Part shown: piece by piece, positions 7,000-27,298 of the stretch
Numbering within the stretch: the stretch's first letter is position 1
Layout: every line of letters starts with the position of its first letter
Origin: an uncultured Clostridiaceae bacterium
GTDB taxonomy: Bacteria > Bacillota > Clostridia > Acetivibrionales > DUMC01
Length of the DNA: 27,298 bases
Reading direction: 5' to 3'
Assembly (NCBI GenBank): GCA_964515895.1
Contig: CAZEYH010000001.1
Span: 1 to 27,298 of the forward strand
Notes under the pieces: generated by a model
Database searches by the model: none
What the model saw: the letters and a program-made list of their open reading frames with translations, nothing else
Told to the model about the DNA's origin: nothing
Translations under genes and position numbers: made by a program

Positions 7000-7267
7000 A
7001 GAAATAGAGTGTATAATAAGAAAAAATTAAGTAAAAATTTATATGAAAAAACATACATTAAAAAATTTCTTGGGCAATTTAATTTTAATAAAGGAGTTTG
7101 CGAAATTATGTAGAATATATAATGCATACAATATAAAAATAAAACAATATAAGACTTGACCAACGCCAGCTAGATTAATTGGGGGTGGATATAATTTAAA
7201 TCTTATTCATATTAGAGCTGGTATTTTTACTAGCAACCACTTGCGTTGGTTTGCCGGGAGGAATTTT

Positions 7268-11847: not shown

Positions 11848-11996
11848 ATAAATACCTCCACCAAACATTACGTCCTATAAAAGAATAGTCCTAATATTCT
11901 TAAAATAGAACTAGTATAATGTTTAATGGAGACGTACATTTCTTGTCACATTTTTTATGTTAGCTACTAAAAAACAAAAAACTCCCAAAAAAGTAC

Positions 11997-12025
11997 TTGA
12001 AAATTAGTTTCACATGCAATATAAT
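11997..12025 (+). promoter_or_regulatory. sigmaA-type promoter of the catabolic cluster
   Basis: TTGAAA (11997-12002), 17-bp spacer, TATAAT (12020-12025), about 35 bp before the first CDS. Confidence 0.75.
11998..12012. promoter_or_regulatory. TGAAA-N5-TTTCA palindrome overlapping the -35 box, candidate repressor (RpiR) operator
   Basis: Sequence TGAAAATTAGTTTCA. An RpiR gene ends the cluster. Confidence 0.5.
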
Positions 12026-12060
12026 AAACATGTAGTATAATTTCCCAACCGGAAGGTGAT

Positions 12061-13455
12061 GTGATGTTGGATTATAAATTAAAGATAGCTCTGGCTCCTG
12101 TGAGGCGTTGGCTGCATGGAAGGAGAACGGGTATTTTCAACCCGGATTATGCTGTAAAAAACAAAAAAATGGTATTAGAATACATTAGACGGAATTTTGC
12201 AAGCAACAGTGTAGAGTTTGTAGACTTGGAATTTCTGAATGATGAGGGCTTGATGTATGATATTTCACAAGCGGAAGAGATAGCAAAGTACTTTAATGCT
12301 GAAGGTGTTGACGGTCTTGTTATCATCAATTGCAATTTCGGTTGTGAAGAGGTTGCCGGAAAAGTTGCCAAGATTTTAAACAAGCCAACCCTAATATGGG
12401 CACCTCAAGATACCATTTTTGATGAAGATGGAATGAGATATACCGATTCACAATGCGGTCTTTTTGCTATAAGCAAGCAACTGCAACGTATAGGGATTCC
12501 ATTTAGTCATATTGAAAATAGTAAAGTAGAAGACGAAGTATTTAATAAAGGATTCGAGGAGTTTTTATCAGTTGCCTGTATGATTAAAAATTTCAGGAAG
12601 CTCAGGATAGCTCAGATAGGCTCAAGACCAAAGCCTTTTAACAGTGTCATATTTAACGAAGGTGAGCTCCTTGAGAAGTTCGGTATTGAAGTTATTCCTA
12701 TTAATCTTGCTATACTAATTCAGGAGTACAATTCTATTTTTAATGCTAAAAGTAAAGAACTAAATGAAGATGTAAAAAAAGTAAAAGCCATTTATGATGT
12801 AGGTGCTCTAACTGACCTGGAACTAAAGAAAATGATGACTTTTAAATATCTATACAAAAAAATATCTGAAGATAATAACTGTCAGATAATATCTACTGAA
12901 TGCTGGACAGCAATGCTTGCTGCTGTTGGTGCAATGCCATGTTTGGCTATGAGTGTACTTGCAGATGATAAACTTATTGTAACCTGTGAATCTGATGTGT
13001 TAGGTGCAATAACCATGGCACTGCTATCTTGTGCTGCAAGAGGGAAGACAGTGCCTTTCTTCGGGGAATTCACTGTAAGGCATCCGGAAAACAAAAATGC
13101 AGAATTGTTATGGCATTGCGGTCCATTTGCTTATTCCCTGAAAAAGCCCGGAGAGAGGGCGGTAATATTCAATTTGAAACCCGGCTTCAGGCTCAAAGAT
13201 GGAAATTATACAATAGCAAGACTTGATTCGTTGAAAGGTGAATATTCACTGCTTGGAGGCACATTTAAAACAACTGATGGACCACACACCTTCGGTACAT
13301 ATTTATGGGCTGAATTTGATGATTATGTAAAATGGGAGAAGAAGCTTATCAATGGTCCCTATATACATCATATGGCAGAAATTGAGGGTGATTATAGAGG
13401 AGCTTTGCAGGAATTCTGTAAATATATTCCGGGTTTACATTTTGATACACCCTGA
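12061..13455 (+). CDS. L-fucose/L-arabinose isomerase family protein
   Basis: Motifs: NFGCEE, DSQCG, CESDVLGA, FGEF, WHCG and YIHH. The start may be GTG 12061 or ATG 12064. Confidence 0.82.
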   Translation: MMLDYKLKIALAPVRRWLHGRRTGIFNPDYAVKNKKMVLEYIRRNFASNSVEFVDLEFLNDEGLMYDISQAEEIAKYFNAEGVDGLVIINCNFGCEEVAGKVAKILNKPTLIWAPQDTIFDEDGMRYTDSQCGLFAISKQLQRIGIPFSHIENSKVEDEVFNKGFEEFLSVACMIKNFRKLRIAQIGSRPKPFNSVIFNEGELLEKFGIEVIPINLAILIQEYNSIFNAKSKELNEDVKKVKAIYDVGALTDLELKKMMTFKYLYKKISEDNNCQIISTECWTAMLAAVGAMPCLAMSVLADDKLIVTCESDVLGAITMALLSCAARGKTVPFFGEFTVRHPENKNAELLWHCGPFAYSLKKPGERAVIFNLKPGFRLKDGNYTIARLDSLKGEYSLLGGTFKTTDGPHTFGTYLWAEFDDYVKWEKKLINGPYIHHMAEIEGDYRGALQEFCKYIPGLHFDTP

Positions 13456-13576
13456 ATGATTATTTGAAAAATTTAAAGTGTTTAGATTATTTAAACTGTC
13501 ACAGAATAAGCAACAGAAGTTTTGCAAGTCGATTTTATCTGGTTTTAAAATAAATGATATTAGAGGGGGTTAAATT

Positions 13577-14422
13577 ATGCCGCTTGTACCAACTATTAAT
13601 CTCGTAGAAAATGCTGCTGTAAAGGGTTATGCAGTTCCTGCCTTTAATGTTTATAATTATGAAACAGTAATTGCAGCTTTGAACACTGCATCTAGGCTAA
13701 ACGCACCTGTTATTCTCCAGATTTACAATAGGCTTATGGATTCACGGCTTGCTAAAGGTCTTGCTTCAGCTATAAGTACGCTCGCTAAAGATGAACCTGT
13801 TAGTATTTCTCTTCATCTTGATCATGGCGAAAGCATAAGCAATGTTATCCGTGCAATTCGTTATGGCTTTTGTAGTGCTATGTATGATGGTTCAAATCTA
13901 TCTTTTAAAGACAACATAAAAACAACATCAAAGATAAAAGAACTATGTCAACATGTAAATATGCCTGTTGAAGGGGAATTGGGTCATGTGGGAACAACTA
14001 ATGAGAACATCAATTCAAGTGAATTTACTGATCCTGAACTGGCAAAGGTGTTTTGTGAAGAAACAGGTGTGGACATGCTTGCTGTAATGGTCGGTTCTGC
14101 GCATGGCAGGTATAAAAAAGCACCTGAACTTGATATAGACAGAATTGCCGCAATAAGAGGAAAAACAAATAAACCTCTTGTGCTGCATGGCGGTTCAGGA
14201 ATACCCGATGAGCAAATCAAAAAAGCTATATCTGCCGGAATTACGAAAATAAACTTCGCAACTGATATATGCGTGGCATTTATTGGTGAAATTCGCAGCT
14301 TACCTTGTGATAGCGGATTATGGGAAAAACCTATTGACATATTTGCTGAAAAATCAATTAAGGCTGTTGAAAGTTTTATGGAAGAAAAGATTTTACTGCT
14401 TGGTGCTGAAAATAGATCATAA
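13577..14422 (+). CDS. Class II (Zn) ketose-phosphate aldolase, FBA/tagatose-bisphosphate/IolJ family
   Basis: Motifs: YAVPAFN, HLDH, MYDGS, EGELG, VGSAHG, LHGGSG and KINFAT. Confidence 0.92.
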   Translation: MPLVPTINLVENAAVKGYAVPAFNVYNYETVIAALNTASRLNAPVILQIYNRLMDSRLAKGLASAISTLAKDEPVSISLHLDHGESISNVIRAIRYGFCSAMYDGSNLSFKDNIKTTSKIKELCQHVNMPVEGELGHVGTTNENINSSEFTDPELAKVFCEETGVDMLAVMVGSAHGRYKKAPELDIDRIAAIRGKTNKPLVLHGGSGIPDEQIKKAISAGITKINFATDICVAFIGEIRSLPCDSGLWEKPIDIFAEKSIKAVESFMEEKILLLGAENRS

Positions 14423-14530
14423 ATAAAGGCATCAAATATTAAAATCTTAAAATAACTATAGAATAATCTAAAAACTTAAATAAAGTAGTGGGTATTAAGG
14501 TTTTTGGTAAAAAGTGCAAAACTAAGGTTA

Positions 14531-14571
14531 CCGGGTATTTTGTTCAATATTAATATTTGAACAAATATCGG
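14531..14571. other. Long imperfect intergenic inverted repeat / stem-loop
   Basis: TTTGTTCAA (14539-14547) pairs with TTGAACAAA (14557-14565) around a near-palindromic TATTAATAT centre. Pairing extends imperfectly to CC/GG ends. No U-tract follows. Confidence 0.5.
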
Positions 14572-14657
14572 TGTTTGAATGAAATATCAGAAAATAATTG
14601 GCTATAAATAACTGACAATGTTTAAAAAATAATGGAAAGGAGACATTATGAATTTTT

Positions 14658-15578
14658 ATGAGTAGAGTAATAGGAATTGGAGCTTCGCTTTATGACGTAA
14701 TTATGTCTGTAGACAACTATCCAAAAGAAAACACAAAACAACGGACGGATAAAGTTACATATCAATGTGGCGGTCCTGTATCTACGGCTTTAGTAGCTAT
14801 AAGCAAACTGGGAGGAGAAGCTTCTTATTTTGGCGTTTTTACCGATGATGGATATTCTGATAGTATGCTTGAAGAATTTAAAAAGTACGGTGTCGATACT
14901 TCATTATGTATAAAAAAAGGCGGTTACTCATCCCCCTTCTCCTTTATTATAGTTTCTGAAAAAGCACATACCAGAACTGTACTATGGACAGGTGGATCTT
15001 TACCGTTACTTCTTCCTGAAGAAGTTCCTAAAGAAGCTATAAAAGCATCATCAGTAATACATCTTGATGGTAACCACAGAGATGCAGCATTATATGCAGC
15101 TAAAATTGCTAAGGAAAACGGTGTAAAGGTTTCACTTGATGCAGGAAGTTGCTATCCCGGAATAACGGAAATAGTGGAACACACAGATTTTTTAGTTGCA
15201 TCGGAAGAGTTTGTACGAGAGTTTACAGGTAATAATGAGCTTCAGGATGCAGCTAAAGTGCTATATAAAAGATTTAAGCCTGAAATTATAGTTGTTACAC
15301 AGGGTGATAAGGGGGGTTTTTATTTTGATGGTCAAGAGCTAGAACACTATCCGGCATATAGCGTTAATGTAGTAGATACCACTGGTGCCGGAGATGTTTT
15401 TCATGGTGCATTTATCTTTGGCTATTTAAAGGGTTGGAAATGGGAAAATATAGTTAGATTTTCCAGTGCAGTTTCTGCCTTAAAATGCACTAAACCAGGT
15501 GGAAGAACAGGTATACCGACTTATAGGGAAACAGTAAATTTTATGAAAGAGTGCGGTGAAGTTGAATTTTTTGAGTGA
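14658..15578 (+). CDS. PfkB/ribokinase family sugar kinase (YihV-like group)
   Basis: Motifs: GGPVSTALVAISKLG, anion-hole DTTGAGDVFHGAF and C-terminal ALKCTKPGGRTGIP. Confidence 0.9.
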   Translation: MSRVIGIGASLYDVIMSVDNYPKENTKQRTDKVTYQCGGPVSTALVAISKLGGEASYFGVFTDDGYSDSMLEEFKKYGVDTSLCIKKGGYSSPFSFIIVSEKAHTRTVLWTGGSLPLLLPEEVPKEAIKASSVIHLDGNHRDAALYAAKIAKENGVKVSLDAGSCYPGITEIVEHTDFLVASEEFVREFTGNNELQDAAKVLYKRFKPEIIVVTQGDKGGFYFDGQELEHYPAYSVNVVDTTGAGDVFHGAFIFGYLKGWKWENIVRFSSAVSALKCTKPGGRTGIPTYRETVNFMKECGEVEFFE

Positions 15579-15677
15579 TTACATAGTTGTTATTTTTGTA
15601 TGAATAAAGGAATGTTTTTTGTTGAAGAAATAAGCATTAAAATGATTATAGGATTAGATGATTAGAGGTGTTGATGA

Positions 15678-17231
15678 ATGACTGAAATGACTGAAGATAC
15701 TGCTATTCATAATGATGAAGATGTCTTGTTGGGAGTTGATTTCGGTAGTGGTGGGGCAAAGTCTACGTTACTTTCTCCAAAGGGCAATATAATAGCGACC
15801 TGTTTCAAGGAATATCCTACATATTATCCTAAACTATATCATGCAGAACAAAATCCAAATGATTGGTGGAAAGCTTTCAGAGATAGTATTACAGAGCTAA
15901 CAGAGAAAAAGGTATTGAAACCATCTCGTTTGATTGCTATAGCGGTTGATGCACCAACACATATTGCTGTTTTGCTTGATAAAGATAAAGAAGTCATACA
16001 AAATGCTATTTTTTGGACAGATCAAAGGAGTGCTTCTATTGCTGATGAACTTGATGAAAAGTATGGTGATTTAATACAGGAACAGGCATTTCATCGACCG
16101 GGAACTATATGGACATTACCGCAATTACTGTGGGTAAAAAGGCAGTTGCCGGAGGTATGGAATAAAACAAGATACATAGTTTTTGAAAAAGATTATATCA
16201 GGTATCTAATGACAGGAAAACTTGCCACGGATAACATAGAAGCGATAGGATCTATGCTATTTGATGCAAGAAAAAAAGTATGGTCAAAAGAGTTATGCAA
16301 TATTATAGACCTTCCTGTAGAATACCTACCCGAGATAAGACTACCTAATGAACTTGCAGGAAAATTGACTAAGAAAGCAGCTAATGAACTTGGTCTTATA
16401 GAAGGTATACCTGTGATTATCGGAACTACTGATACAGCTTTAGAAGTATTTGGTGCAGGGGCTATAGACTTAGGTCAAGCTACTGTTAAATTGGCGACTG
16501 CAGGCAGGATATGTGCAATAACAGAAAGAGCGGCACCTCACAAATATCTTGTAAACTATCCCCATGTTGTTCCGGGCAAATGGTATCCGGGTACGGCAAC
16601 TAAATCTTGCGCTTCATCCTATAGATGGTTTAGGGACGTTTTTGGTGAGAAAGAGGTAGAGTTTGAAAAGTTGGAAGGGAAAAGCTCATATTACTACCTT
16701 GATAAGCTGGCGGAATCCGTCCCTCCGGGATGTGGCGGGTTATTTTATCATCCCTATTTAACCGGCGAATTAACCCCATATAACAATAGCAATTTAAGGG
16801 CAAGTTTTACCGGAGCTACTATGAAGCATACACGGGCACATTTTACCCGTTCAGTTTTAGAAGGTGTTGCTTTTTCTCTTAAAGACTGTATGAGTGTTAT
16901 TAAAGAGTGTGGGTTTAAATTAGAAGATGTGAGGCTTATTGGCGGAGGAGCACAAAGTCCGCTTTGGAGCCAGATTGTATCTGATGTTTTAGGAATTTCA
17001 TTATCTAAACCTTCGACTGCAGATTCATCTGTGGGAGGCGCAATGTTAGCAGGTGTTGGATCTGGTGTTTTTTCGGGCTTTGAAGATGCGGTAAATAAAT
17101 GTGTGAAAATAACAGAAAAGGTAGAACCCGATATGGAAAGGCATAAGTATTATGAAAAGCTTTTTCAAGTCTATAAAGAAATACAGCAAGGGTTGGAAGA
17201 AGCATATGAAAAACTGGCAGTAATCATATGA
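15678..17231 (+). CDS. FGGY family carbohydrate kinase (xylulokinase-like)
   Basis: Motifs: GVDFGSGGAK, WTDQRS, GTTD, PYLTGELTP, LEGVAF and GGGAQS. GAGGTG RBS. Confidence 0.9.
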   Translation: MTEMTEDTAIHNDEDVLLGVDFGSGGAKSTLLSPKGNIIATCFKEYPTYYPKLYHAEQNPNDWWKAFRDSITELTEKKVLKPSRLIAIAVDAPTHIAVLLDKDKEVIQNAIFWTDQRSASIADELDEKYGDLIQEQAFHRPGTIWTLPQLLWVKRQLPEVWNKTRYIVFEKDYIRYLMTGKLATDNIEAIGSMLFDARKKVWSKELCNIIDLPVEYLPEIRLPNELAGKLTKKAANELGLIEGIPVIIGTTDTALEVFGAGAIDLGQATVKLATAGRICAITERAAPHKYLVNYPHVVPGKWYPGTATKSCASSYRWFRDVFGEKEVEFEKLEGKSSYYYLDKLAESVPPGCGGLFYHPYLTGELTPYNNSNLRASFTGATMKHTRAHFTRSVLEGVAFSLKDCMSVIKECGFKLEDVRLIGGGAQSPLWSQIVSDVLGISLSKPSTADSSVGGAMLAGVGSGVFSGFEDAVNKCVKITEKVEPDMERHKYYEKLFQVYKEIQQGLEEAYEKLAVII

Positions 17232-17302
17232 AAAGTAAGCAGCAATTATATGAAAAGCCTTATGCACGTCACCTAATACAAAAAAAGAATGGAGGTCATA
17301 TT

Positions 17303-18742
17303 ATGAATTATAAGAAACAAGGATTGCATTTTGACATGATATATTCAGAACTTGAAGATGCAGTCGGAAAAGGCAATATAAGCACAAGTGAAGTTGATAA
17401 GTATATATATAGTGTCGACTATTACTGGGTTCCAAGAATAATAGCTGATAGAGGGGAAAAATCTGAAACAGCTGACTTTATATTGTATCCACAGAATACG
17501 CAGCAGATATCTAATGTTATGCAAATAGCAAACTACTACAAAATACCAGTAACAGTGTGGGGTGGTGGTTCGGGCTCACAGGGTGGTGCATTGCCGGTAT
17601 ATGGTGGAATTATCCTAGATATGAAGAAGATGAATAAGGTGCTTAGTATAAATGATATAGCTTATACGGCAACTGCAGAAACAGGCATAATTCAGCAGGA
17701 TTTTGAGTGGGCGGTTAATAGGAAGGGATACTCCTTGATGCATCTTCCGGCCTCAATCTCATGCGCAACGCTGGGAGGATTTTTGGCTCATAGAGGTACT
17801 GGAGTATTATCTACAAAATATGGAAAAATTGAGGACCTTATAATAAATATGGAGGTTGTCCTTCCAACAGGTGAAATTATAAATACCCTTGAAGTTCCAA
17901 GACATGCTTCAGGGCCTGATTTAAACCAGATTTTTGTTGGTTCCGAGGGTGTATTTGGGATAATTACAAAGGCTACTCTTAAAATGTTTGACATACCTGA
18001 AACAAGATGTTTCCATGCATTTATGTTTAGAAATTTCCATGATGCTTATGAGGCAGGACGTGAGATTATGACAAGAAGGCTCAATCCTTCTGTAATAAGA
18101 TTATATGATGAGGAAGAAACCAAACACCATGTAAAAAGAGTGCTTGGACTTGAACGAGAAGGAGCATACCTAGTTTTTGGCTTTGATGGAGATAAAGAAA
18201 TAGTTGAAATTCAGAAAAAACGTGCTATTGATATATGCAAAAAGACTTCATATGAAGATTTGGGAAGTAAAGGCGGAACTGATTGGTGGGAGAATAAGTA
18301 TAAATTTTATTTTCCGCCATACGCATATGATATACCTCAGGCTTTTGGTACAATGGATACTGTTGCAACCTATGACAAAATGGAAAAGGTATATTGGGGG
18401 ATGAAGAATGCAATAGAAAGCAATTATGATAATGTGAGGTTTATAGCTCACTTTTCTCACTGGTATGAGTGGGGTGTAATGTGCTATGACCGTTTTATAA
18501 TCGAGGATGAGCATGTACCAAGAGATCCTCACGAGGCAATAAGACTTTATAACGATATCTGGACAACGGGAGTTAGAGCAGCGCTGGAAAATGGTGGAAT
18601 AATTAATGAGCACCATGGTATCGGTATTAAATTAGGCAGATTTATGAAGGAACAATATGGTCCTGCATTTAAGGTGCTTCAAATAATTAAGAAGGGCCTT
18701 GACCCAAATAATATTATGAATCCGGGCAAGGCTGGATTATAG
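17303..18742 (+). CDS. FAD-binding oxidoreductase, VAO/PCMH fold (alkyl-DHAP synthase-like / GlcD-like)
   Basis: Motifs: WGGGSGSQGG, HLPAS...TLGG, KYGKIED, GSEGVFGIIT, AHFSH, EHHGIG and DPNNIMNPGK. GGAGGT RBS lies 6 nt before ATG 17303, which is preferred over 17228. Confidence 0.88.
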   Translation: MNYKKQGLHFDMIYSELEDAVGKGNISTSEVDKYIYSVDYYWVPRIIADRGEKSETADFILYPQNTQQISNVMQIANYYKIPVTVWGGGSGSQGGALPVYGGIILDMKKMNKVLSINDIAYTATAETGIIQQDFEWAVNRKGYSLMHLPASISCATLGGFLAHRGTGVLSTKYGKIEDLIINMEVVLPTGEIINTLEVPRHASGPDLNQIFVGSEGVFGIITKATLKMFDIPETRCFHAFMFRNFHDAYEAGREIMTRRLNPSVIRLYDEEETKHHVKRVLGLEREGAYLVFGFDGDKEIVEIQKKRAIDICKKTSYEDLGSKGGTDWWENKYKFYFPPYAYDIPQAFGTMDTVATYDKMEKVYWGMKNAIESNYDNVRFIAHFSHWYEWGVMCYDRFIIEDEHVPRDPHEAIRLYNDIWTTGVRAALENGGIINEHHGIGIKLGRFMKEQYGPAFKVLQIIKKGLDPNNIMNPGKAGL

Positions 18743-18761
18743 AGAGAGGGGGAGCGATGAA

Positions 18762-19943
18762 ATGAATTTATATATAGAAAAACATACTGAAGCTATTGAC
18801 AACTGTAGATTTTGTTGGATGTGCAGACATGTTTGCACGCAAGGAAAAGTTACTTCAAATGAAGTACATACTGCTAGGGCCCTTGGTTTATTGCTTGCTT
18901 CAATAAATCGGGGAATTAATGATTATAACCTAGAAACAGCAGAAATATTGTTTCAATGCTGCCAATGCGGATACTGCAAAGAGTGGTGTGTGAGCAGTTA
19001 TGATGCTCCTGCTTTTGTTCGTGCAGGACGTGTAGATGCTATTAAGTTAGGCTTCATACCTCAACCTGTACAAGCGGTTATAGAATCATTAGATACTTAT
19101 GGACACCCCTTTGGCAGTAAAATTAATAGCCACGGCTCTCAAACTAAAACTGGTTCAGAAATTATAACTGATGGGAAGCCAAATTGTAGGACTCTTCTTT
19201 ATCTTGGAGCATTTGCAAGATATTTACGACCTGAGGTTGGTAAAGCAGCAATTAGCTTACTAAAAAAACTTGGTGTAGATTTTACATTGTTGGAAAATGA
19301 ACCAAATAGCGGTTACTACTATTATAACTTAGGGTTCATTGAAAAAGGAGAAAAGCAATCTAAAAAAGTAGTTGATGCCTTTAAAAATGGTGGATATAAA
19401 ACAGTCGTGGTAATAAGTCCTGCCGATTATTATATTATGACAAATGAATATGATAAGAAACTGCTTGAAGATGCAGGAATAAAAATCACTCCTTTGGTAT
19501 CTTTAATATCTTCACTTGATATTAAGCCCATGATTAAGCCTGTAAAACCTTCTGATTATTTAAAATTGGCATATAACGATTCATCTTATCTTGCAAGGTA
19601 TATGAATATTACTGATGAACCTCGCAATGTACTTAAAGCTGTGTTCGGTGATAAACTTCGTGAATTGCATTGGAATGGAAAGCTAGCGAAAAGTAGTGGC
19701 TCAGGACTACTTTTGACCTACCCGGAAATGGCACTTAATATTGCAAGAAAATTGTTAAGTGAGGTTAGGGAAGAAGGAGTATCTACCCTGGTTGTTTCAG
19801 GAGCTGAAGCAAAGGAAAGTTTACTGCGAGCTATAAAGTGTGAAAGTAGTTGCACAGAAGATGGTAAGGATGAAAATGAGAGAACAAATATATGTAGTAT
19901 TGAAGTTATGGAACTTGCTGAGCTTATGGATAGAGTAATTTAA
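18762..19943 (+). CDS. Fe-S protein (GlpC/GlcF/HdrD-like): N-terminal 2x[4Fe-4S] plus two degenerate CCG domains
   Basis: CRFCWMCRHVC and CCQCGYCKEWC ferredoxin motifs. The CCG-domain scaffold is recognisable (LGVDF, YNDSSYLAR, EPRNVL) but lacks the motif cysteines. Confidence 0.8.
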   Translation: MNLYIEKHTEAIDNCRFCWMCRHVCTQGKVTSNEVHTARALGLLLASINRGINDYNLETAEILFQCCQCGYCKEWCVSSYDAPAFVRAGRVDAIKLGFIPQPVQAVIESLDTYGHPFGSKINSHGSQTKTGSEIITDGKPNCRTLLYLGAFARYLRPEVGKAAISLLKKLGVDFTLLENEPNSGYYYYNLGFIEKGEKQSKKVVDAFKNGGYKTVVVISPADYYIMTNEYDKKLLEDAGIKITPLVSLISSLDIKPMIKPVKPSDYLKLAYNDSSYLARYMNITDEPRNVLKAVFGDKLRELHWNGKLAKSSGSGLLLTYPEMALNIARKLLSEVREEGVSTLVVSGAEAKESLLRAIKCESSCTEDGKDENERTNICSIEVMELAELMDRVI

Positions 19944-19998
19944 ACTAGATTCTTAAAAAACAAATAAAACTCAAAAAAATTAATGGTGGTGTATAGAG

Positions 19999-20814
19999 AT
20001 GCTAAAAAAGAATTATAAGTGTGAAAATGGGTATGTAAAACTTTGCGAAAGAGGAAAGTCAAGTTTATCGGTTTTAGAATTTGGCATGCTTAATTTAGAG
20101 TGTGGTCAGAGCTATACTTTAAACTCTAATGATAATGAAATGGCACTGGTTATATTAAGCGGAAGATGCAAAATTAAAGCAGGGTCAAAAGAATGGCAGA
20201 ATGTAGGTAAAAGGAGAAATGTATTTTCCGGACCTGCTGCAAGCGTATTTGTGTCACGTAAAACAGAAGTAATAATTACAGCACATGAAAAGCTTATGAT
20301 TTCTGTTTCACAAGCTCCTACAGATAGAGACTGTGAGCCAATATTAATAAAACCTGAGGATGTTATTATAAAAAATTTAGGCAAATACAACTGGGGACGT
20401 GAAGCTCATTTCATAATTGATGAAAGAGTTCCTGCAAAGAACCTATTTATAGGAGAAGCTTTTGTAAACCCCGGAAGTTGGGCAAGTTATCCTCCACACA
20501 AGCATGATGTTGATGATATGCCGGATGAAAACTTTTCCGAGGAAATTTACTATTATCAGTTTAATTTACCTCAAGGTTTTGGAATTCAAAGGGTATATAC
20601 CGATGACGAAGAGTTGGACGAAGTATATGTGGTTAAGAATCATGATGTTGTGGAAATACCGAAAGGATACCATCCATTTGCATTGGCTCCTGGGTATTGT
20701 GGTTACTATTTATGGATAATGGGCGGAGAAAACAGAGGATTCTATATGAACTTCCAAAAAGAGCATGCATGGATAAATGCTCTGGATACTTTTCTTACTA
20801 CAAATGGACTGTAG
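19999..20814 (+). CDS. iolB: 5-deoxy-glucuronate isomerase-like (IolB/KduI cupin family)
   Basis: WASYPPHKHD, EEIYYY and PKGYHP are hallmark motifs. The symbol is a family-level call only. Confidence 0.85.
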   Translation: MLKKNYKCENGYVKLCERGKSSLSVLEFGMLNLECGQSYTLNSNDNEMALVILSGRCKIKAGSKEWQNVGKRRNVFSGPAASVFVSRKTEVIITAHEKLMISVSQAPTDRDCEPILIKPEDVIIKNLGKYNWGREAHFIIDERVPAKNLFIGEAFVNPGSWASYPPHKHDVDDMPDENFSEEIYYYQFNLPQGFGIQRVYTDDEELDEVYVVKNHDVVEIPKGYHPFALAPGYCGYYLWIMGGENRGFYMNFQKEHAWINALDTFLTTNGL

Positions 20815-20828
20815 TAAGAAAAGTTGAT

Positions 20829-20910
20829 TCACTAAGGGATTCAGTGGGGCATTGTAATCCCCGCTGAACAAGGATACAGCGCTAGCGTATTATAGTTACA
20901 GCGCTAGTGA
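20829..20910. repeat. REP-like palindromic unit: GC-rich hairpin plus 11-bp direct repeat
   Basis: TTCAGTGGGG (20840-20849) pairs with CCCCGCTGAA (20859-20868), with one G-U pair and a 9-nt loop. TACAGCGCTAG occurs at 20875-20885 and 20897-20907. Outer TCACTA/TAGTGA form a 6-bp inverted repeat. Confidence 0.55.
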
Positions 20911-20989
20911 TAATAATTAAAGTCAATTAAGCTCCTACTTATATAGAGAAGAGACATCTTGACGCTTTGATTAATGGAGGTGTACATGG

Positions 20990-22141
20990 ATGAAAATTGG
21001 AATAATCGGTTTTGGTAATCGCATAAAGGGCATGTTTAATGCTCTTGAAAGGCAAGAAATGGGCGGCATCACTCTTGCTGCTATTACTGATATCAGAAAT
21101 GCCGAAATCAAGAAATCACTAGAAGAAGAAGGTAGAAATCCATTAGAAATAAGCTATTATGATGATCCTGATAAGATGATGGATAACGAAGAACTAGATG
21201 GAATAATGATAGGTACCAGATGCTCGTTACATACCAAAATGGCTATTAAGGTTCTTGAAAGAAACATACCTTTATTCCTTGAAAAACCTGTATCAACAAA
21301 TATTGAAGACTTTTTTAAGTTAAAAGAAGCTGGGGAAAAGACAAAAGCACAAGTAGTTGTATCTTTTCCTCTGCGTACATCAACCATTGTTAAAACTGTA
21401 AAAGAAATAATTAATTCGGGCAAGATTGGTACAGTTGAGCATGTTCAAGCTATAAACAATGTCCCATATGGAAGAGGATATTATCACAACTGGTATAGGG
21501 ATGAAAATGAAACTCAGGGTTTGTTTCTTCAAAAAGCTACTCATGATTTCGATTATATAAATTACCTGCTTGGTACAAAACCTGTAGAAATATGTGCAAT
21601 GACTTCAAAACAGATATTTAAAGGCAATAAGCCTGCAGACCTATTTTGTAAGGATTGTGATGAATATTATACTTGTGACGAGAGTCCATATGTTATTAAG
21701 AAGTATTACAAAGATAAAGTTAAAGGAGAAATGTGCTGTTATGCAGTTGACACTGGAAATGAAGATTCAGGAAGCGCTATTATAAGATATAATACCGGTA
21801 TGCATGTAAGCTATTCACAAAATTTTTTCGCACGTCACAAGGCGGGCGCAAGGGGAGCAAGATTGTTAGGATTTAAAGGTACTCTTGAATTTGACTGGTA
21901 TAAAGGAGAAATAAAAATATTTATGCATCAAACTCCGAGAACTGATACATATAAATTTGATATACCAGGTGGTTCACATTTTGGTGGAGACGATGTATTA
22001 GCAGAAAATTTTATAAATGTTATGCAGGGAAAGGAAGATTCTGTTGCACCCTTGGAAGCAGGGCTTCTAAGTACTCTTATGTGTATAAAAGCTAAAGAGT
22101 CTGCTTTAACTGGTGAATTTAGGAAAATTGAACAGATTTGA
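20990..22141 (+). CDS. Gfo/Idh/MocA family NAD(P)-dependent oxidoreductase
   Basis: Motifs: KIGIIGFG Rossmann loop, LFLEKP, KATHDFD and HFGGD. GGAGG RBS. Confidence 0.9.
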   Translation: MKIGIIGFGNRIKGMFNALERQEMGGITLAAITDIRNAEIKKSLEEEGRNPLEISYYDDPDKMMDNEELDGIMIGTRCSLHTKMAIKVLERNIPLFLEKPVSTNIEDFFKLKEAGEKTKAQVVVSFPLRTSTIVKTVKEIINSGKIGTVEHVQAINNVPYGRGYYHNWYRDENETQGLFLQKATHDFDYINYLLGTKPVEICAMTSKQIFKGNKPADLFCKDCDEYYTCDESPYVIKKYYKDKVKGEMCCYAVDTGNEDSGSAIIRYNTGMHVSYSQNFFARHKAGARGARLLGFKGTLEFDWYKGEIKIFMHQTPRTDTYKFDIPGGSHFGGDDVLAENFINVMQGKEDSVAPLEAGLLSTLMCIKAKESALTGEFRKIEQI

Positions 22142-22270
22142 AAAATGTACTAATATTATTAAGCGTGAATATCATCATAAATACATTACAAAACTAAGCA
22201 TAGACACAAATAACATAAGTATAAATAGCGTAAGAATAAGAGAAAAAATACTGATAAAGGGGTATAGCAG

Positions 22271-23938
22271 ATGCCTGAAGAAATTAAACTAATTGCATTA
22301 AGTTCACTTGAAAAAGTATTTTTGGATCGGGAACCTAAAAAAGGGTACTATAATGGTTCTATGTTAAAAAATGAAAAGTATTCCTTTCAGGTTGCTTTTT
22401 CATTATCGAATGTTCGATTTCCGGCACTTTTTACAAAACTTAAAATTGATTCGCCACTAAAAGAACATATAACAGTAAGGATAGTAGGAAATCTGCCTTC
22501 GGTATGTCCTATTTACCCTGATAAGTATGATGATTACTACCTAAGAATTAGTCCCGGACTTTTTCCTGATCCTCTATATAATATAAAAAATGATACAATT
22601 AGGATTTTTACAAACAAATGGCAGTCTATCTGGATTACTATCCAAGGTGATGAGAATTTAAAATCGGGTAAATACCCAATTAATGTTACGTTTTCAATAC
22701 CTGAAAGAAATTTAGAAAACACAATTACTTTTGAAATCGAAGTGCTCGATGCTTGCCTTTCAGAACAAAAGCTTATTTATACTAATTGGTTTCACTGTGA
22801 TTGTATTGCATCAATGTATAATTGTGAAATTTTCTCAGAAACACATTGGAAGTTGATAGAAAAATTTATTGCAGTAGCTTCTAATAACGGGATGAATATG
22901 ATATTAACACCTGCATTTACTCCTCCACTTGATACGCCAATTGGGGCTGAACGTGCTACAGTTCAACTTGTGGATGTATATAAAACCGGGGACAACTATA
23001 AATTTAGCTTTGATAGGTTCAACCAGTGGATAGATATTTGTCTTAAAAATGGTATTCAATATTTTGAGCACTCTCATCTTTTTACACAGTGGGGTGCAGA
23101 GTTTGCGCCAAAGGTCATGGGGTATGAAAATGGTGAATATAAGCATCTCTTCGGGTGGGATACACTTGCTACCGGTCGCGAATACACAAATTTTTTGGGA
23201 CAATATCTGCCTGTACTTATTTCTTTTCTTAAGAAAAAAGGAGTTGACAAGAGAACATATTTTCATATTTCTGATGAACCTTCTGCTAAACATCTAGAAA
23301 GCTATGCAAAAGCAAGGAATGCAGTAGAAGATAAGCTAAAAGGATATAAGATTTTTGATGCACTTTCTGATTATGACTTTTATAAGAGAGGACTTGTAAC
23401 TACTCCTATATCGTCAACATCGCATATTAATGATTTTATTGGGAAGGTTGATGATCTTTGGGCATATTATACAGGGCATGAAAATGTACAGTTGTCTAAC
23501 CGTTTTTTCTCTATGCCTTCAGCACGTAACCGTATTTTAGGAACACAAATGTATAAATATGATATTAAAGGTTTTTTACAGTGGGGATATAATTTTTATT
23601 ATACTAAGCTATGCAGAGAAGAATGTAATCCGTTTATTTCAACTGATGCATTTGGAGAATATCCTTCCGGAACATCTTTTATGGTATATCCGGGAAGTGA
23701 AGGGCCCATTGAGTCACTTCGATTAATTGTTTTTAATGAAGGCTTACAGGATATGCGTGCAATGCAACAATTGGAATCTTATATCGGTAAAGAGGGTGTT
23801 ATGAAAATTGTCGAAGAGGGCATTCCTGGAATTACCTTTTCCCAGTATCCATATAATGACGATTATTTATTGGATATGAGGGATAGGATTAACCGTGAAA
23901 TCGTGAAATTAGAACATCTAGAATTTGGAGCTGAGTAA
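22271..23938 (+). CDS. DUF4091-domain protein, GH123-like putative beta-N-acetylhexosaminidase (cytoplasmic)
   Basis: Motifs: TNWFH, HISDEP with an adjacent Asp-Glu pair, WAYY, GFLQWGYN and SLRL...EGLQD. No signal peptide. Confidence 0.7.
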   Translation: MPEEIKLIALSSLEKVFLDREPKKGYYNGSMLKNEKYSFQVAFSLSNVRFPALFTKLKIDSPLKEHITVRIVGNLPSVCPIYPDKYDDYYLRISPGLFPDPLYNIKNDTIRIFTNKWQSIWITIQGDENLKSGKYPINVTFSIPERNLENTITFEIEVLDACLSEQKLIYTNWFHCDCIASMYNCEIFSETHWKLIEKFIAVASNNGMNMILTPAFTPPLDTPIGAERATVQLVDVYKTGDNYKFSFDRFNQWIDICLKNGIQYFEHSHLFTQWGAEFAPKVMGYENGEYKHLFGWDTLATGREYTNFLGQYLPVLISFLKKKGVDKRTYFHISDEPSAKHLESYAKARNAVEDKLKGYKIFDALSDYDFYKRGLVTTPISSTSHINDFIGKVDDLWAYYTGHENVQLSNRFFSMPSARNRILGTQMYKYDIKGFLQWGYNFYYTKLCREECNPFISTDAFGEYPSGTSFMVYPGSEGPIESLRLIVFNEGLQDMRAMQQLESYIGKEGVMKIVEEGIPGITFSQYPYNDDYLLDMRDRINREIVKLEHLEFGAE

Positions 23939-23940
23939 TA

Positions 23941-25158
23941 ATGAGAAGGACACTTATAAAAAATGGTAAACTTGTTCTGCCGGATAAAATTATAAATGAA
24001 AGTAATCTCCTATTTGAGGATGATAAAATTCTGGAAATAGGATATAAAGGGCAATTGCCGGAAAATACAGAACTTATAGACGCAAAAGGTGGTTTTATTT
24101 CTCCCGGACTGGTTGATATGCACCTTCATGGTGGTGGCGGTTATGATTTTATGGATGGGACAAAAGAGGCTCTTATAAATATTAGCCGTAACCACTGTAT
24201 GCACGGCACGACTTCTTTGGCACCTACTACAGTTGCATGTAGCAATGAAGAACTATTCTCGTTTTTTGATATATATCGCAAAGTAACAGAACAATGCGAT
24301 ATAGGTACTAAGCTGCTTGGAATACATATGGAGGGTCCATATATTTCACAAGAAATGAAAGGTGCTCAACCTGCACAATATGTTAGAAATGTAGAAGAAC
24401 ATGATTTAAATGATATATTAGATAGAGGGGCAGACATAATTATACGATGGAGTGTTGCTCCTGAGCTACCGGGAATGCAGAAATTTGCTGAGAAAATATC
24501 AAAATATTCAATACTGCCTGCAATTGCTCACAGCAATGCAACTTGTGATGATATTCTTAGAAGTTTTAAATGGGGGTATAGACATATTACTCACCTGTAT
24601 AGTAATACTCCATCTGTAAGAAAAATTTCACAAAATGTTCATGCTGGTGTTGTTGAGGCAGCATATTTGATTGATGAAATGACAGTAGAACTTATTGGTG
24701 ATGGCAAACATGTACCTCCTGAGCTTATGCAAATGGTGTACAAGATTAAGGGAGTGGAACAGCTTGTATTGATCACTGACTCAATGCGTGCTGCAGGTAC
24801 TGATGTTTCGGAAAGCTTTCTTGGAAGCCACGGAAGCGGTAATCCTGTAATTATTGAAGATGGAGTTGCAAAACTTCCTGACAGAACATATTTCGCCGGT
24901 AGTATTGCTACTGCTGACAAGGTTATTCAGAATGCACATTTTAATGTGGGTTTGCCGCTTTATGATGCTATTAGAATGATGTCACTTACACCTTGTAAAA
25001 TACTTGGGCTAGAAAAAACTAAAGGCAGTTTAGAAAAAGGCAAAGATGCAGATATAGTTATTTTTGATGAGAAACTGAATGTAGGTAGTGTCTTTGTAGA
25101 AGGGAAATTAAAATATTCAAGACAAAGACACTTAAAATTAGCAACAGCTAATTTATAA
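23941..25158 (+). CDS. nagA: N-acetylhexosamine-6-phosphate deacetylase (NagA/AgaA family)
   Basis: Motifs: PGLVDMHLHGGGG, PTT, GIHMEGPY, APE, AHSNA, THLY, DGKH, LITD, AGS and GKDADIV. Confidence 0.9.
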   Translation: MRRTLIKNGKLVLPDKIINESNLLFEDDKILEIGYKGQLPENTELIDAKGGFISPGLVDMHLHGGGGYDFMDGTKEALINISRNHCMHGTTSLAPTTVACSNEELFSFFDIYRKVTEQCDIGTKLLGIHMEGPYISQEMKGAQPAQYVRNVEEHDLNDILDRGADIIIRWSVAPELPGMQKFAEKISKYSILPAIAHSNATCDDILRSFKWGYRHITHLYSNTPSVRKISQNVHAGVVEAAYLIDEMTVELIGDGKHVPPELMQMVYKIKGVEQLVLITDSMRAAGTDVSESFLGSHGSGNPVIIEDGVAKLPDRTYFAGSIATADKVIQNAHFNVGLPLYDAIRMMSLTPCKILGLEKTKGSLEKGKDADIVIFDEKLNVGSVFVEGKLKYSRQRHLKLATANL

Positions 25159-25208
25159 ATAAAATTTATAGATTAATAATAAAAAATAAAAGGAAGGGGT
25201 TAAAAAAT

Positions 25209-26060
25209 ATGAAAGAATATAATAAGATTCCTATTTCCGAGCTTGGAAAAAATAGTGGAATAAAATTGGAAGTGTGTGAAACTGAGCATGATCTTTACTG
25301 GAAAATGGCAATTGAGGTTTTTGAACTAATTAAAGAAAACAACCAAAATGGCAAGGATACTGTTATGATAGTACCTTATGGTCCTGTAGGTCCATTTAGC
25401 AGATTTGTATATTTAGTGAACAAGTACAGGTTAAGTTTGAAAAACTGCTACTTCATTAATATGGACGAATACTTGGATGATAATAATCAATATCTGGATA
25501 TTAATCACCCATTGTCATTTAGAGGCGGCATGGAGCGCGTATTTTACAGCAAGATAGATGATGAACTTAACTTACCTAAAGAGCACAGGTTTTTCCCGGA
25601 ACCGGGAAGAGAAGGTTGTGTATGGGAGCTAATACAAAAACTGGGCGGATTAGATATGTGTTACGGAGGAGTTGGAATAAATGGGCATTTTGCTTTTAAT
25701 GAGCCTCCGGAACCTGGTGTAATTATGAGTAATAGTGAATTTAAGAGTCTTCCTACAAGAATCTTAAAACTAAGCAGAGAAACCAAGACAATAAATGCAT
25801 TTATGAATTGTAAGGGAGACTTGGATGCAATTCCTGAAAATTGTATTACAGTTGGTATGAAAGAAATATGGAGTGCTAAAAAAATAAGAATGTGCATGCC
25901 ACGTGATTGGAATGCAGGCGCATTAAGAAAGGTACTGCATGGTCCCATTACTTGTGCTGTGCCTTGTTCACTTTTCCAGGAACATGATGATGCGAAAATA
26001 TATGCTTCTGCAGTGGCACTAGAATCTCCTATACCGGAGATTAGAATATATAATAAATAG
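25209..26060 (+). CDS. Glucosamine/galactosamine-6-phosphate deaminase/isomerase-like protein (divergent NagB family)
   Basis: Motifs: FINMDEY, GVGINGHFAFNEP and ITVGMKEI. The N-terminal phosphate loop is atypical (PYGPVGP). Confidence 0.78.
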   Translation: MKEYNKIPISELGKNSGIKLEVCETEHDLYWKMAIEVFELIKENNQNGKDTVMIVPYGPVGPFSRFVYLVNKYRLSLKNCYFINMDEYLDDNNQYLDINHPLSFRGGMERVFYSKIDDELNLPKEHRFFPEPGREGCVWELIQKLGGLDMCYGGVGINGHFAFNEPPEPGVIMSNSEFKSLPTRILKLSRETKTINAFMNCKGDLDAIPENCITVGMKEIWSAKKIRMCMPRDWNAGALRKVLHGPITCAVPCSLFQEHDDAKIYASAVALESPIPEIRIYNK

Positions 26061-26070
26061 AGAGGTTTAT

Positions 26071-26943
26071 ATGGGAAATAAAAGCAATGATGTTAAATGT
26101 ATTCCTGGTACAATATTGAGAATGCGGTCTATATACGAGACATTGGGAACTGCAGGTAAGAAAATTGCCGATTGGATAATGGAGAACCCAAGGGATATTA
26201 TTAAGTTGTCAATCAGTGAGCTTGCAGAAGAGTGTCAAGTAAGTGAAGCAACTGTAGTGCGTTTTTCACGTAAATTAGGCTACACCGGATATCAGGAATT
26301 AAAAATTGCTATAGCGCAGGAAACAGTTAATGACTATACTCTTGTAAATGAGAAGCTGAGTGAAAATGATAGCTTTGAGGATATTATAAATAAAGTATTC
26401 TTTGATATTGAAAATACTTTGGATAATACAAAAAAAATTTTAGATTATGAGAAAATGACAAAGGCTGCTGACGCAATTTTAAATGCCAGAAATGTTGCTA
26501 TCTTTGGCCTAGGTAACTCTGCATCTATAGCATATGATTATCAGCATAAATTCATGAGGCTAGGTATCAAAGCAGTAGCATACAATGATAATCACATGCA
26601 AGCAATTGTTGCTTCTCATCTAACGGATAAAGATGTTGCTATAGGAATATCGCATTCAGGTTCTTCAATTGACGTAGTTGATGCCCTGAAAATTTCTAAA
26701 GAGAGGGGAGCAAAAACTATTTGCATAACAAATTATGGAAAATCCCCTATCTTAAAGCACAGCGGTATAGCCTTATTTACCGTGTCAAATGAGACAAAGT
26801 ATCGGATTTTCGGAATGGCTTCCCGTATTGCACAGCTGGCTATATTGGACTCAATATATACTTATATAGCTTTAAATAATCGGAAGGTAGGTATAGAAGA
26901 AATAAAGCGAACAGAGAAAGCATTGCAAAGTAAGAAGTATTAA
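26071..26943 (+). CDS. RpiR/MurR family transcriptional regulator (HTH + SIS)
   Basis: HTH motif SISELAEECQVSEATVVRFSRKLGYTGYQELK, and SIS motifs FGLGNS, ISHSGSS and ITNY. Confidence 0.93.
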   Translation: MGNKSNDVKCIPGTILRMRSIYETLGTAGKKIADWIMENPRDIIKLSISELAEECQVSEATVVRFSRKLGYTGYQELKIAIAQETVNDYTLVNEKLSENDSFEDIINKVFFDIENTLDNTKKILDYEKMTKAADAILNARNVAIFGLGNSASIAYDYQHKFMRLGIKAVAYNDNHMQAIVASHLTDKDVAIGISHSGSSIDVVDALKISKERGAKTICITNYGKSPILKHSGIALFTVSNETKYRIFGMASRIAQLAILDSIYTYIALNNRKVGIEEIKRTEKALQSKKY

Positions 26944-26953
26944 TTAATGGATT

Positions 26954-26995
26954 TGGGTGCATTTTTCAACCAAACTAAATGCACCCATTATACTA
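26954..26995 (+). terminator. Probable intrinsic terminator closing the cluster
   Basis: An 11-bp stem, TGGGTGCATTT (26954-26964) / AAATGCACCCA (26977-26987), lies 10 bp after the RpiR stop. The T-rich tail is weak. Confidence 0.6.
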
Positions 26996-27298
26996 TTTAA
27001 ATTTACATATTACTCCAAAATTTACTTATTTATTTTAGCTATGACATAATGACTTAGCCAATTAATTACCTATAACTTTTTATTATATGTGATAAGATGA
27101 GATAAGTGGAGACTTAAATATAATGAGTTTTCTGCTATGTGCATGTTTTCTATTTTGTACCGTGGAAAAATCAATGCTTCCAAGTAAAATTTTCAGATAT
27201 TTTAACATGCTTTTCAAAGCAAAACGATTCATCTACTCTGCTATTTACCCTTTCAACCGACGGGCGTTTATTATAGCATGTGTCCCACTTATAACTAG

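Follow-up and report, generated by a model that had tools for sequence, protein, structure and literature searches.

Organisation of the locus

The window analysed here is the whole of contig C1, a stretch of 27,298 nucleotides from a metagenome-assembled genome (74% complete, ∼34% G+C) of an uncultured Clostridiaceae bacterium; DNA nearly identical to it is present in bioreactor, anaerobic-digester, landfill and sludge metagenomes. Twelve open reading frames (ORFs) on the plus strand occupy positions 12061–26943, exactly where a first-pass annotation of the sequence had placed them. They form a real, conserved and uncharacterised operon, and a composite one, in which a seven-gene core (12064–20814) is joined to an N-acetylgalactosamine (GalNAc) module (22271–26060).

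The co-oriented genes run, as had been proposed, from a near-consensus promoter to a hairpin with an 11-bp stem. The putative promoter, TTGAAA-17-TATAAT (11997–12025, plus strand), matches the consensus at 11 of 12 positions and is the top-scoring match in the region, in which promoter-like sites overall are not enriched (68, compared with 64 ± 7 in shuffled sequences). It ends 36 nt 5′ of the annotated GTG start at 12061, and a ribosome-binding site, GGAAGGTGA (12052–12060, plus strand), precedes the first gene. This gene most likely starts at ATG 12064 rather than at GTG 12061, since the family consensus opens with MLDYK and the database copy is 463 residues long. The hairpin (26954–26987, plus strand), a perfect 11-bp stem with a 12-nt loop, lies just past the stop codon of rpiR, the last gene; a terminator scan called nothing after rpiR, this hairpin included. 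Nor did the scan predict a plus-strand terminator in any of the four intergenic gaps longer than 120 nt (121, 235, 175 and 129 nt), and internal promoters are therefore possible. Contigs from a metatranscriptome library, belonging to a relative 90–95% identical to the window, cover the operon from the PfkB gene to rpiR and bridge the FGGY/flavoenzyme, flavoenzyme/Fe-S and IolB/Gfo junctions; because DNA may have been carried over into this library, they support expression of the operon only weakly. No Rfam family, riboswitches included, is found in the window.

The core enzymes

Families were assigned by Pfam and NCBIfam profile searches and nearest structures by matches to the PDB, with scores in bits set against the cut-off of each model; the families named at first pass hold in these searches. 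The first gene (12064–13455; plus strand, like all twelve) encodes a 463-residue aldose–ketose isomerase of the FucI/AraA superfamily that is SftI-like. The sole family match of this FucI-like protein, which has 3739 homologues, is the NCBIfam SftI model (NF048012; 120.6 bits, cut-off 700); there is no Pfam match and no PDB relative at E ≤ 1e-3.

The second gene (13577–14422) encodes a class II ketose-(bis)phosphate aldolase (PF01116, 281 bits). Its nearest PDB entries are the tagatose-bisphosphate aldolase AgaY/KbaY (189 bits) and YdjI (151 bits), and it is 37% identical to E. coli KbaY. It passes the broad ketose-bisphosphate aldolase subfamily model TIGR00167, and does not reach the equivalog or subfamily models for tagatose- and fructose-bisphosphate aldolases. 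The third protein (14658–15578; PfkB Pfam model, 165 bits) is a PfkB-family kinase of the YihV/ribokinase/ketohexokinase type. Its best PDB match is the sulfofructose kinase YihV of E. coli (144 bits, 35% identity), followed by ribokinase and ketohexokinase, all three of which use sugars without phosphate. It lies outside the LacC/1-phosphofructokinase (1-PFK) subfamily, scoring 53.6 against a cut-off of 216 for TIGR03168.

The fourth gene (15678–17231) encodes an XylB-like FGGY kinase (TIGR01312 XylB, 385 against a cut-off of 380), with 227 bits to E. coli XylB. We rejected the idea that it is the orthologue of E. coli YgcE, to which it is only 23% identical, XylB being nearer. Its stop codon overlaps the start of the next gene (17231/17228), which encodes a flavin adenine dinucleotide (FAD)-dependent flavoenzyme (17228–18742) with FAD_binding_4 and FAD-oxidase_C domains. 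This enzyme is AGPS/YgcU-like: its best PDB match is alkyl-dihydroxyacetone phosphate (alkyl-DHAP) synthase (175 bits), with D-lactate dehydrogenase (D-LDH)/LctD at 120 bits, and it shares 29% identity with E. coli YgcU (180 bits). Its Fe-S partner (18762–19943) is GlcF/GlpC-like, with a weak match to the CCG domain (PF02754, 26.8 bits) and 22% identity to E. coli GlcF, the LdhH and TfrB models scoring far under their cut-offs. The last core gene (19999–20814) encodes a cupin isomerase of the IolB/KduI family (PF04962, 268 bits; TIGR04378, 240 against 205).

The GalNAc module and its recurrence

The module opens with a predicted cytoplasmic exo-β-N-acetylgalactosaminidase (22271–23938), a member of the 'Group 4' enzymes related to glycoside hydrolase family GH123 (GH123_cat, PF13320, 336 bits). 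Over its full length it matches PDB entry 8K2L, a monosaccharide-releasing β-N-acetylgalactosaminidase, at 542 bits; the catalytic DE pair aligns within an SDEP motif, and the N-terminus does not resemble a signal peptide. In these three respects it is like the Group 4 enzymes NgaLy and NgaP2 (PDB 8K2L–8K2N), for which the available portion of the original report describes the DE motif, expression without removal of a signal peptide and strict exo-GalNAcase activity, with NgaBf and NgaLy preferring GalNAc-β-1,4-Gal (PMC11087588). From this likeness the window enzyme should release GalNAc in a strictly exo manner. The genomic contexts named in that portion are lipoprotein, capsule, O-antigen and periplasmic glycan genes; NagA, the NagB-like protein and the core partners are not named there (PMC11087588).

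The second gene of the module (23941–25158) encodes a NagA-family N-acetylhexosamine(-6-phosphate) deacetylase (TIGR00221, 261 against a cut-off of 226). The third (25209–26060) belongs to a subfamily of NagB-fold deaminase/isomerases, scoring 93 against 237 for TIGR00502 and matching no Pfam model. At least 120 close homologues, 67–94% identical, are present among ∼4,000 NagB-fold matches, and the subfamily is currently mislabelled as glucosamine-6-phosphate deaminase.

The trio of GH123, NagA and NagB-like genes recurs beside core or electron-transfer flavoprotein (ETF) genes in three gene orders: that of the window and those of the loci L108 and L110. L108 has NagA, NagB-like and GH123 genes adjoining RpiR and a fused ETF. 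L110 and L111 share a complete core, in which the FucI-like gene is only a remnant, followed by a fused ETF, NagA, a set of EtfB, EtfA and LctD-like genes, GH123 and the NagB-like gene. The remnant, between the IolB and FGGY genes (L110:9423-9961; L111:8059-8597), consists of ORFs of 70 and 109 residues that correspond to the N- and C-terminal parts of the FucI-like protein and are 59% identical to that of the window; it is an internally deleted pseudogene within an otherwise intact operon. At the usual place of the FucI-like gene, the operons of L110 and L111 open with a WbsX/GH99-like protein (PF14307; L110:2987-4099).

Other loci vary the glycosidase. L090 has the FucI-like gene, then NagB-like and NagA, then the flavoenzyme and the remaining core; L104 has a gene resembling GH109, an α-GalNAcase family, followed by NagB-like and NagA, near the flavoenzyme, Fe-S and FGGY genes; L103 has NagB-like, NagA and GH20 together. 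NagA and the NagB-like protein are thus linked again and again with two GalNAc-specific glycosidase families and one general β-hexosaminidase family, and in turn with the core. The link to an N-acetylhexosamine that had been proposed is borne out, and is specifically one to GalNAc.

The same genome holds further genes of these families. On contig C85 (L097:240-8082) a NagA-like gene, a Gfo/Idh/MocA gene, a NagB-like gene, a xylose-isomerase-like TIM barrel, a GNAT protein, a 251-residue protein and GH20 lie in this order; this NagB-like protein is a second type without a phosphate site, with a PVG loop, S172 and H208 (E. coli NagB numbering). Contig C178 (L098:240-1898) carries, beside esterase and MBOAT genes, another GH123-type gene with 50% identity to that of the window.

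Two of the twelve genes stand outside both core and module. The Gfo/Idh/MocA NAD(P) oxidoreductase assigned by Pfam (20990–22141) has as its best PDB match a putative oxidoreductase at only 59 bits. We rejected its identification as a GH109 α-GalNAcase, as it has no PF21252 match, no match to a GH109 structure and no tblastn match to the GH109-like gene of L104. The last gene (26071–26943) encodes a regulator of the RpiR/MurR family, with HTH_6 and SIS domains, assigned from Pfam and NCBIfam. A paralogue with 82% amino acid identity is found on contig C308 (L096:70-2384), where it is followed by a ROK-family protein, a candidate sugar kinase or regulator; the similarity of C308 to the window ends at the rpiR stop codon.

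Conservation of the core operon

To survey the core, 87 loci were chosen by their carrying a FucI-like relative, from one-genome-per-species contigs (374 loci confirmed) and from contigs encoding close homologues, and each was searched for all twelve proteins. The FucI-like gene is present in all 87 by selection. The PfkB kinase and the flavoenzyme are each found in 65 of them, the aldolase in 64, the Fe-S protein in 62, the FGGY kinase in 53 and the IolB-like protein in 51, and RpiR lies beside the core in 35. The counts are 6 for the NagB-like protein, 3 for NagA, 2 for the Gfo homologue and 0 for GH123, and the core is mostly found without any amino-sugar gene. With six core genes each present in 51–65 of the loci, synteny is strongly conserved and the cluster is no patchwork. 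The twelve genes had been read at first pass as one pathway; they are better described as the seven-gene core, which usually stands alone, with a mobile GH123/NagA/NagB-like module attached.

The usual order, obtained by clustering of ORFs, is RpiR (divergent), FucI-like, flavoenzyme, Fe-S, aldolase, PfkB, IolB-like, then optionally a mutarotase and DUF4867, then FGGY and ETF. The flavoenzyme is the most conserved core protein (51–79% identity across loci). ETF, often as a single fused chain, is part of the set in most relatives, and DUF4867 and mutarotase are frequent extra partners. None of these three was found beside core-like genes elsewhere in the present genome, which is 74% complete; its only ETF genes elsewhere are three ordinary EtfAB pairs, one of them beside an LctD-like gene. 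Rarer partners are the lactate racemase LarA (11 loci), a sugar ABC transporter with an AraC-type two-component system, and Gfo/Idh/MocA with ThuA.

Several loci carry glycosidases. A GH2 β-galactosidase lies directly 3′ of the FucI-like gene in five of them, these GH2 neighbours scoring 397 bits as β-galactosidases and 183 as glucuronidases, and L017 has a GH42 β-galactosidase, GH38 and an aldo-keto reductase after the FucI-like gene. Some relatives have a TAL_FSA protein beside the class II aldolase or, as in L005, in its place. In L101:5782-13022, where the NagB-like protein is 80% identical to that of the window, an ABC transporter is followed by TAL_FSA, a xylose-isomerase-like barrel, the FucI-like gene, two NagB-like paralogues, a class II aldolase and a PFK-family (PF00365) kinase; NagA, PfkB, FGGY and flavoenzyme genes were not seen in the stretch of contig examined.

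Active site residues

The first-pass annotation had noted non-canonical active sites in several of the enzymes, and alignment of the window proteins and their orthologues with E. coli reference proteins, taken from the annotated K-12 record, confirms this for the NagB-like protein, the PfkB kinase, the flavoenzyme and NagA. In the NagB-like protein the catalytic residues D72, H143 and E148 (E. coli numbering) are kept, as they are in seven other members of the subfamily. R172, K208 and the TGGT loop at 41–44, which we take from the E. coli NagB structure to be the phosphate binders, are not. The window protein has Phe at 172, Asn at 208 and YG, with a two-residue deletion, for the loop. In all eight members R172 is replaced by Phe, Tyr, Ile or Ser, K208 by Asn, Gln or His, and the shortened loop reads YG or VG. 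The binders are kept in E. coli NagB and in two canonical NagB genes of the same set of loci, and E. coli AgaI retains K208 with Glu at 172. These replacements indicate that the subfamily has probably lost the phosphate-binding site.

In YihV the sulfonate is bound by the triad K27-N109-R138 (PMC8006165). The window kinase keeps D13, K27 and D244, and in 55 of 55 orthologues position 109 is Val, Ile or Leu and position 138 is Asn, His or Leu. Because two of the three triad residues are lost and the kinase falls outside the LacC/1-PFK subfamily, the C6 end of its substrate is likely to be neutral, probably bearing no sulfonate, carboxylate or phosphate.

The flavoenzyme lacks the HxGDGNxH and GEHG motifs, which we take to provide metal ligands; in their place are SHWY and (D/E)HHG, across 51 orthologues. 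E. coli GlcD carries both, as does the second flavoprotein of L110, which is LctD-like. A role as a glycolate or D-lactate dehydrogenase of the GlcD/LctD type was rejected on these motifs; the score for TIGR00387 is 202 against 568. NagA retains its metal ligands and D273 and has Gln for H143 (E. coli numbering), a His that presumably polarises the substrate carbonyl. The same substitution is seen in L050 and not in L090 or the C85 protein. The phosphate-binding R227 could not be placed in the alignment, which is ambiguous there.

Comparison with known pathways

The nearest characterised relatives of the isomerase, the kinase and DUF4867 belong to the sulfoglycolytic Embden–Meyerhof–Parnas pathways, sulfo-EMP and sulfo-EMP2, which comprise a YihS or SftI isomerase, a YihV or SqiK kinase, a YihT or class II aldolase and the DUF4867 protein SftX. 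The order proposed here, from aldose to ketose to 1-phosphate to dihydroxyacetone phosphate (DHAP) and a C3 aldehyde, is the same, and the SftI match, the YihV match and the DUF4867 and mutarotase partners support a logic of this kind. Core relatives with a transaldolase mirror the sulfo-SFT variant, and the layout of L101 resembles sulfo-EMP2 with a transaldolase added. The operon nevertheless lacks the sulfonate-binding residues, sulfoquinovosidase, sulfolactaldehyde reductase and exporter of sulfo-EMP, and adds the FGGY kinase, the IolB-like isomerase, the flavoenzyme/Fe-S/ETF unit and the amino-sugar branch. Neither a GH31 sulfoquinovosidase nor a sulfonate exporter appears in the Pfam annotation of the window or among annotated neighbours, although no genome-wide search for GH31 was made. 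Neighbourhoods combining FucI, FGGY and DUF4867 have been listed as unassigned aldose/ketose metabolism (PMC11968277).

According to a 2025 review, the described bacterial GalNAc routes all start from GalNAc-6-phosphate, and the Aga pathway consists of AgaPTS or AgaK, AgaA/NagA, AgaS/AgaI, LacC/PfkB and KbaY/GatY (PMC12118421). The operon would share with it deacetylation and deamination–isomerisation toward a tagatose derivative, and has a class II aldolase resembling KbaY; for AgaA/NagA it offers a deacetylase that passes the TIGR00221 cut-off and keeps the metal ligands and D273. In contrast, the twelve genes include no phosphotransferase system, permease, AgaK or ROK kinase, and the glycosidase is cytoplasmic, so that free GalNAc would arise inside the cell. 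The deaminase has the NagB fold without a phosphate site and is not a SIS-type AgaS, and the kinase is outside the tagatose-6-phosphate kinase (LacC/PfkB, 1-PFK) subfamily. The Aga resemblance noted at first pass is therefore superficial.

Other proposed resemblances fare differently. A cupin isomerase, a PfkB kinase and a class II aldolase are adjacent in most relatives, as in the lower myo-inositol pathway, and the IolB match, at family level, is above its cut-off; this part of the comparison stands. The rest does not: IolC (TIGR04382, 97 against 300) and IolG (TIGR04380, 88 against 355) are far under their cut-offs, the kinase is YihV-like, and no IolD, IolE or IolA Pfam family is found among the window ORFs. 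The likeness to fucose and arabinose routes fails on every family score, with fuculokinase at 126 against 471, ribulokinase at 146 against 428, no Pfam match for the isomerase that was compared with FucI/AraA, and an aldolase of PF01116 rather than PF00596. The redox system described as FAD plus Fe-S is present in both its parts, but it is AGPS/YgcU-like rather than GlcD-type, and most relatives add an ETF, which this contig lacks.

The E. coli K-12 ygc cluster (ygcU, ygcQR ETF, ygcNO, ygcE) likewise links an AGPS-like flavoenzyme to an FGGY kinase and an ETF, and the window flavoenzyme has SHxY and HHHG-type motifs in common with YgcU. The E. coli set differs in having no isomerase or aldolase, and the FGGY kinase here is closer to XylB. 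A literature search on ygcU and ygcE found no paper, and one on the gene combination and on GH123 operons found none describing this operon or pathway; the claim that no published pathway holds all of these parts agrees with what we found.

A proposed pathway

We propose that the first three enzymes of the core act on a neutral sugar in the order of the sulfo-EMP steps. The FucI-like isomerase would convert a free aldose to a ketose, the YihV-like kinase would phosphorylate this ketose, itself unphosphorylated and without an anion at C6, probably at C1, and the KbaY-like aldolase would cleave the ketose-1-phosphate to DHAP and a C3 aldehyde. In the second branch the cytoplasmic exo-β-GalNAcase would free GalNAc from an imported oligosaccharide, a step for which homology to assayed enzymes argues strongly. 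NagA would then strip off the acetyl group, and the NagB-like deaminase may convert the amino sugar directly to the same ketose, with release of ammonia.

GalNAc, through NagA and the NagB-like protein, and the matching neutral aldose, through the FucI-like isomerase, would thus be alternative entries to one ketose. We favour this because the NagB-like and NagA genes directly follow the FucI-like gene in L090, because the phosphate site of the NagB-like protein appears lost, and because L110, with only a remnant of the FucI-like gene, keeps the GalNAc module and the rest of the core intact; the order in L090 and the remnants in L110 and L111 likewise speak for the converging branches suggested at first pass. 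The shared ketose would probably be D-tagatose, and the C3 product D-glyceraldehyde, because the GH123, GH109, GH2 and GH42 enzymes release D-galacto sugars and the aldolase is nearest to AgaY/KbaY. For the phosphorylation of D-glyceraldehyde the best candidate is the FGGY kinase that resembles XylB. That both branches converge on one unphosphorylated ketose, probably D-tagatose, which is then 1-phosphorylated and cleaved, is a reading that we hold tentatively, giving it a chance somewhat short of even.

A wider formulation seems to us doubtful, if possible: that anaerobic Clostridia have a GalNAc route in which phosphorylation comes last, free GalNAc giving free tagatose that enters an undescribed EMP-like route, and in which the AGPS-like flavoenzyme, with the Fe-S protein and ETF, would perform an unprecedented redox step on the ketose phosphate or a triose derivative.

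A number of points weigh against the convergence on D-tagatose. The family-level gene identities, the synteny, the recurrence of the module and the residue patterns are observed, and from these we infer every substrate and the order of the steps. The genome carries a galactokinase above its family cut-off, beside which a second galactose route would be redundant; an absence of the Leloir pathway, considered as support for a role in galactose use, was not borne out, this genome and one of the four others tested having a galactokinase. TAL_FSA replaces the aldolase in some relatives, and this family prefers the D-threo (fructose-like) configuration, not that of tagatose. As NagA is above the cut-off of the GlcNAc-6-phosphate deacetylase model and its phosphate-binding Arg is unplaced, the sugar may still be phosphorylated at that step. 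The IolB-like protein and the most conserved protein of all, the flavoenzyme with its Fe-S and ETF partners, are given no task. A minority of relatives have LarA and a canonical LctBCD-type dehydrogenase with the operon; LarA and the LctBCD-type complex of L110 point to a 2-hydroxy acid such as lactate, and such a product would not be expected from D-glyceraldehyde. This contig provides the operon with neither a transporter nor an ETF. Moreover, a 6-deoxy sugar would fit the hydrophobic residues substituted in the kinase and the deaminase. Schemes built on glyceraldehyde, lactaldehyde, glycolaldehyde and tartronate semialdehyde as the C3 product were compared, and none fitted all the evidence for the IolB-like protein, the FGGY kinase and the flavoenzyme.

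Alternative explanations

The replacement of the kinase anion binders by hydrophobic residues, and of the NagB-like phosphate binders by aromatic or aliphatic ones, raises the alternative of a route for 6-deoxyhexoses, D-fucose or D-quinovose with their N-acetylamino forms D-FucNAc or D-QuiNAc, which are unable to carry a 6-phosphate. Isomerase, or deacetylase and deaminase, would give a 6-deoxyketose, then its 1-phosphate, then DHAP and lactaldehyde, the latter passing via lactate to pyruvate. In its favour, sulfoquinovose is 6-sulfo-quinovose, and the nearest relatives of the isomerase, kinase and DUF4867 are sulfoglycolysis proteins; lactate racemase is found in 11 loci and a canonical LctBCD-type complex inside L110. 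No aldehyde dehydrogenase is present, however, to form the lactate, the FGGY and IolB-like proteins are left without a role, and D-fucose and D-quinovose are rare for so widespread an operon. The linked glycosidases also belong to GalNAc-specific families, and the GH123 relatives were assayed on GalNAc, 6-deoxy substrates being absent from the list of tested compounds (PMC11087588). We consider this route unlikely. Chondroitin-like polymers of glucuronic acid (GlcA) and GalNAc would call for a hexuronate route beside the GalNAc one, and this is the sole scheme that gives every core enzyme a task. The IolB-like or FucI-like isomerase would give a 5-keto-aldonate, PfkB and the aldolase would yield DHAP and tartronate semialdehyde, and the latter would be isomerised by the IolB-like protein, reduced by the flavoenzyme and phosphorylated by the FGGY kinase to phosphoglycerate. 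In its support, the IolB-like protein passes the equivalog cut-off of a family whose known members use uronates, and the aldolase resembles YdjI, whose substrate is a ketose phosphate with a carboxylate end. Anaerobic digesters, the habitat of the organism, contain uronate–GalNAc wall polymers of methanogens. Such substrates nonetheless sit poorly with a kinase pocket that has lost its arginine and asparagine, a flavoenzyme without hydroxyacid-dehydrogenase metal motifs and a glutamate- or aromatic-lined NagB-like pocket ill-suited to a carboxylate; no glucuronidase or lyase was seen either, the GH2 neighbours being nearest to β-galactosidases. Such a route appears improbable.

It might also be that the module is an ordinary phosphorylated Aga/Nag pathway and the orphan operon next to it unrelated: a kinase from another locus would make GalNAc-6-phosphate for NagA, the NagB-like protein would then give tagatose-6-phosphate, and a bisphosphate aldolase would complete the route. 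NagA above its equivalog cut-off, the KbaY-like aldolase, the ROK-family gene after the RpiR paralogue on C308 and the absence of the module from most core operons would all be consistent with this. It is opposed by the loss of all three phosphate-binding elements from the NagB-like protein, by a kinase that is not LacC-type, by the lack of any AgaS homologue in a tblastn search of the genome (74% complete), by the repeated embedding of the module within the core operon (L090, L110) and by the loss of the FucI-like gene in L110, which fits its functional replacement. We regard it as distinctly improbable. A variant of sulfoglycolysis acting on sulfoquinovose would be in keeping with an isomerase that matches SftI only, a kinase nearest to YihV and the DUF4867 partner in relatives. 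Two of the three sulfonate-triad residues are, however, missing in all kinase orthologues, and the SftI score is 120 against 700. No YihS or YihT homologue was found in the genome (74% complete), and neither a sulfoquinovosidase nor a sulfonate exporter was seen among the Pfam-annotated neighbours. This variant is scarcely credible, and we reject it on the kinase triad and the isomerase score.

Flanking sequences

Upstream of the operon lie a 1217-residue signalling protein with 7TMR-DISM, HisKA, HATPase, receiver, GAF and GGDEF domains (7241–10894), a divergent gene for a Na/Pi cotransporter (10897–11868, minus strand), an ABC-exporter pair and a LacI regulator, none of which seems to be part of it. 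The end of the contig (27100–27298) is a repeat, with similar short stretches on contigs C59 and C88. In two DNA runs the read depth at the end of the window rises 7- to 30-fold and loose ends lie at 27207 and 27214; the repeat probably explains the break in the assembly.

Biological significance

Several hundred uncultured species have the core operon, judging from the 374 loci confirmed in one-genome-per-species data, and it holds a flavoenzyme/ETF unit related to the orphan ygcU of E. coli. To this the window adds a feeding module specific for GalNAc and a NagB-fold subfamily that appears to have no phosphate site. Together with L110, it gives this orphan core a first substrate handle, in that a GalNAc-specific glycosidase would feed the core and the FucI-like isomerase would be dispensable where the amino-sugar branch is present. 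From the sequence evidence the assignment of D-tagatose and GalNAc as substrates is tentative. GalNAc is a major sugar of host and microbial glycans, and the operon points to an undescribed way for anaerobes to use it, apparently without the usual phosphate handle. If this is true, the phosphate-independent entry by deacetylase and deaminase would be a new way into GalNAc use, and the NagB-like proteins would represent a new functional subfamily of the NagB fold.

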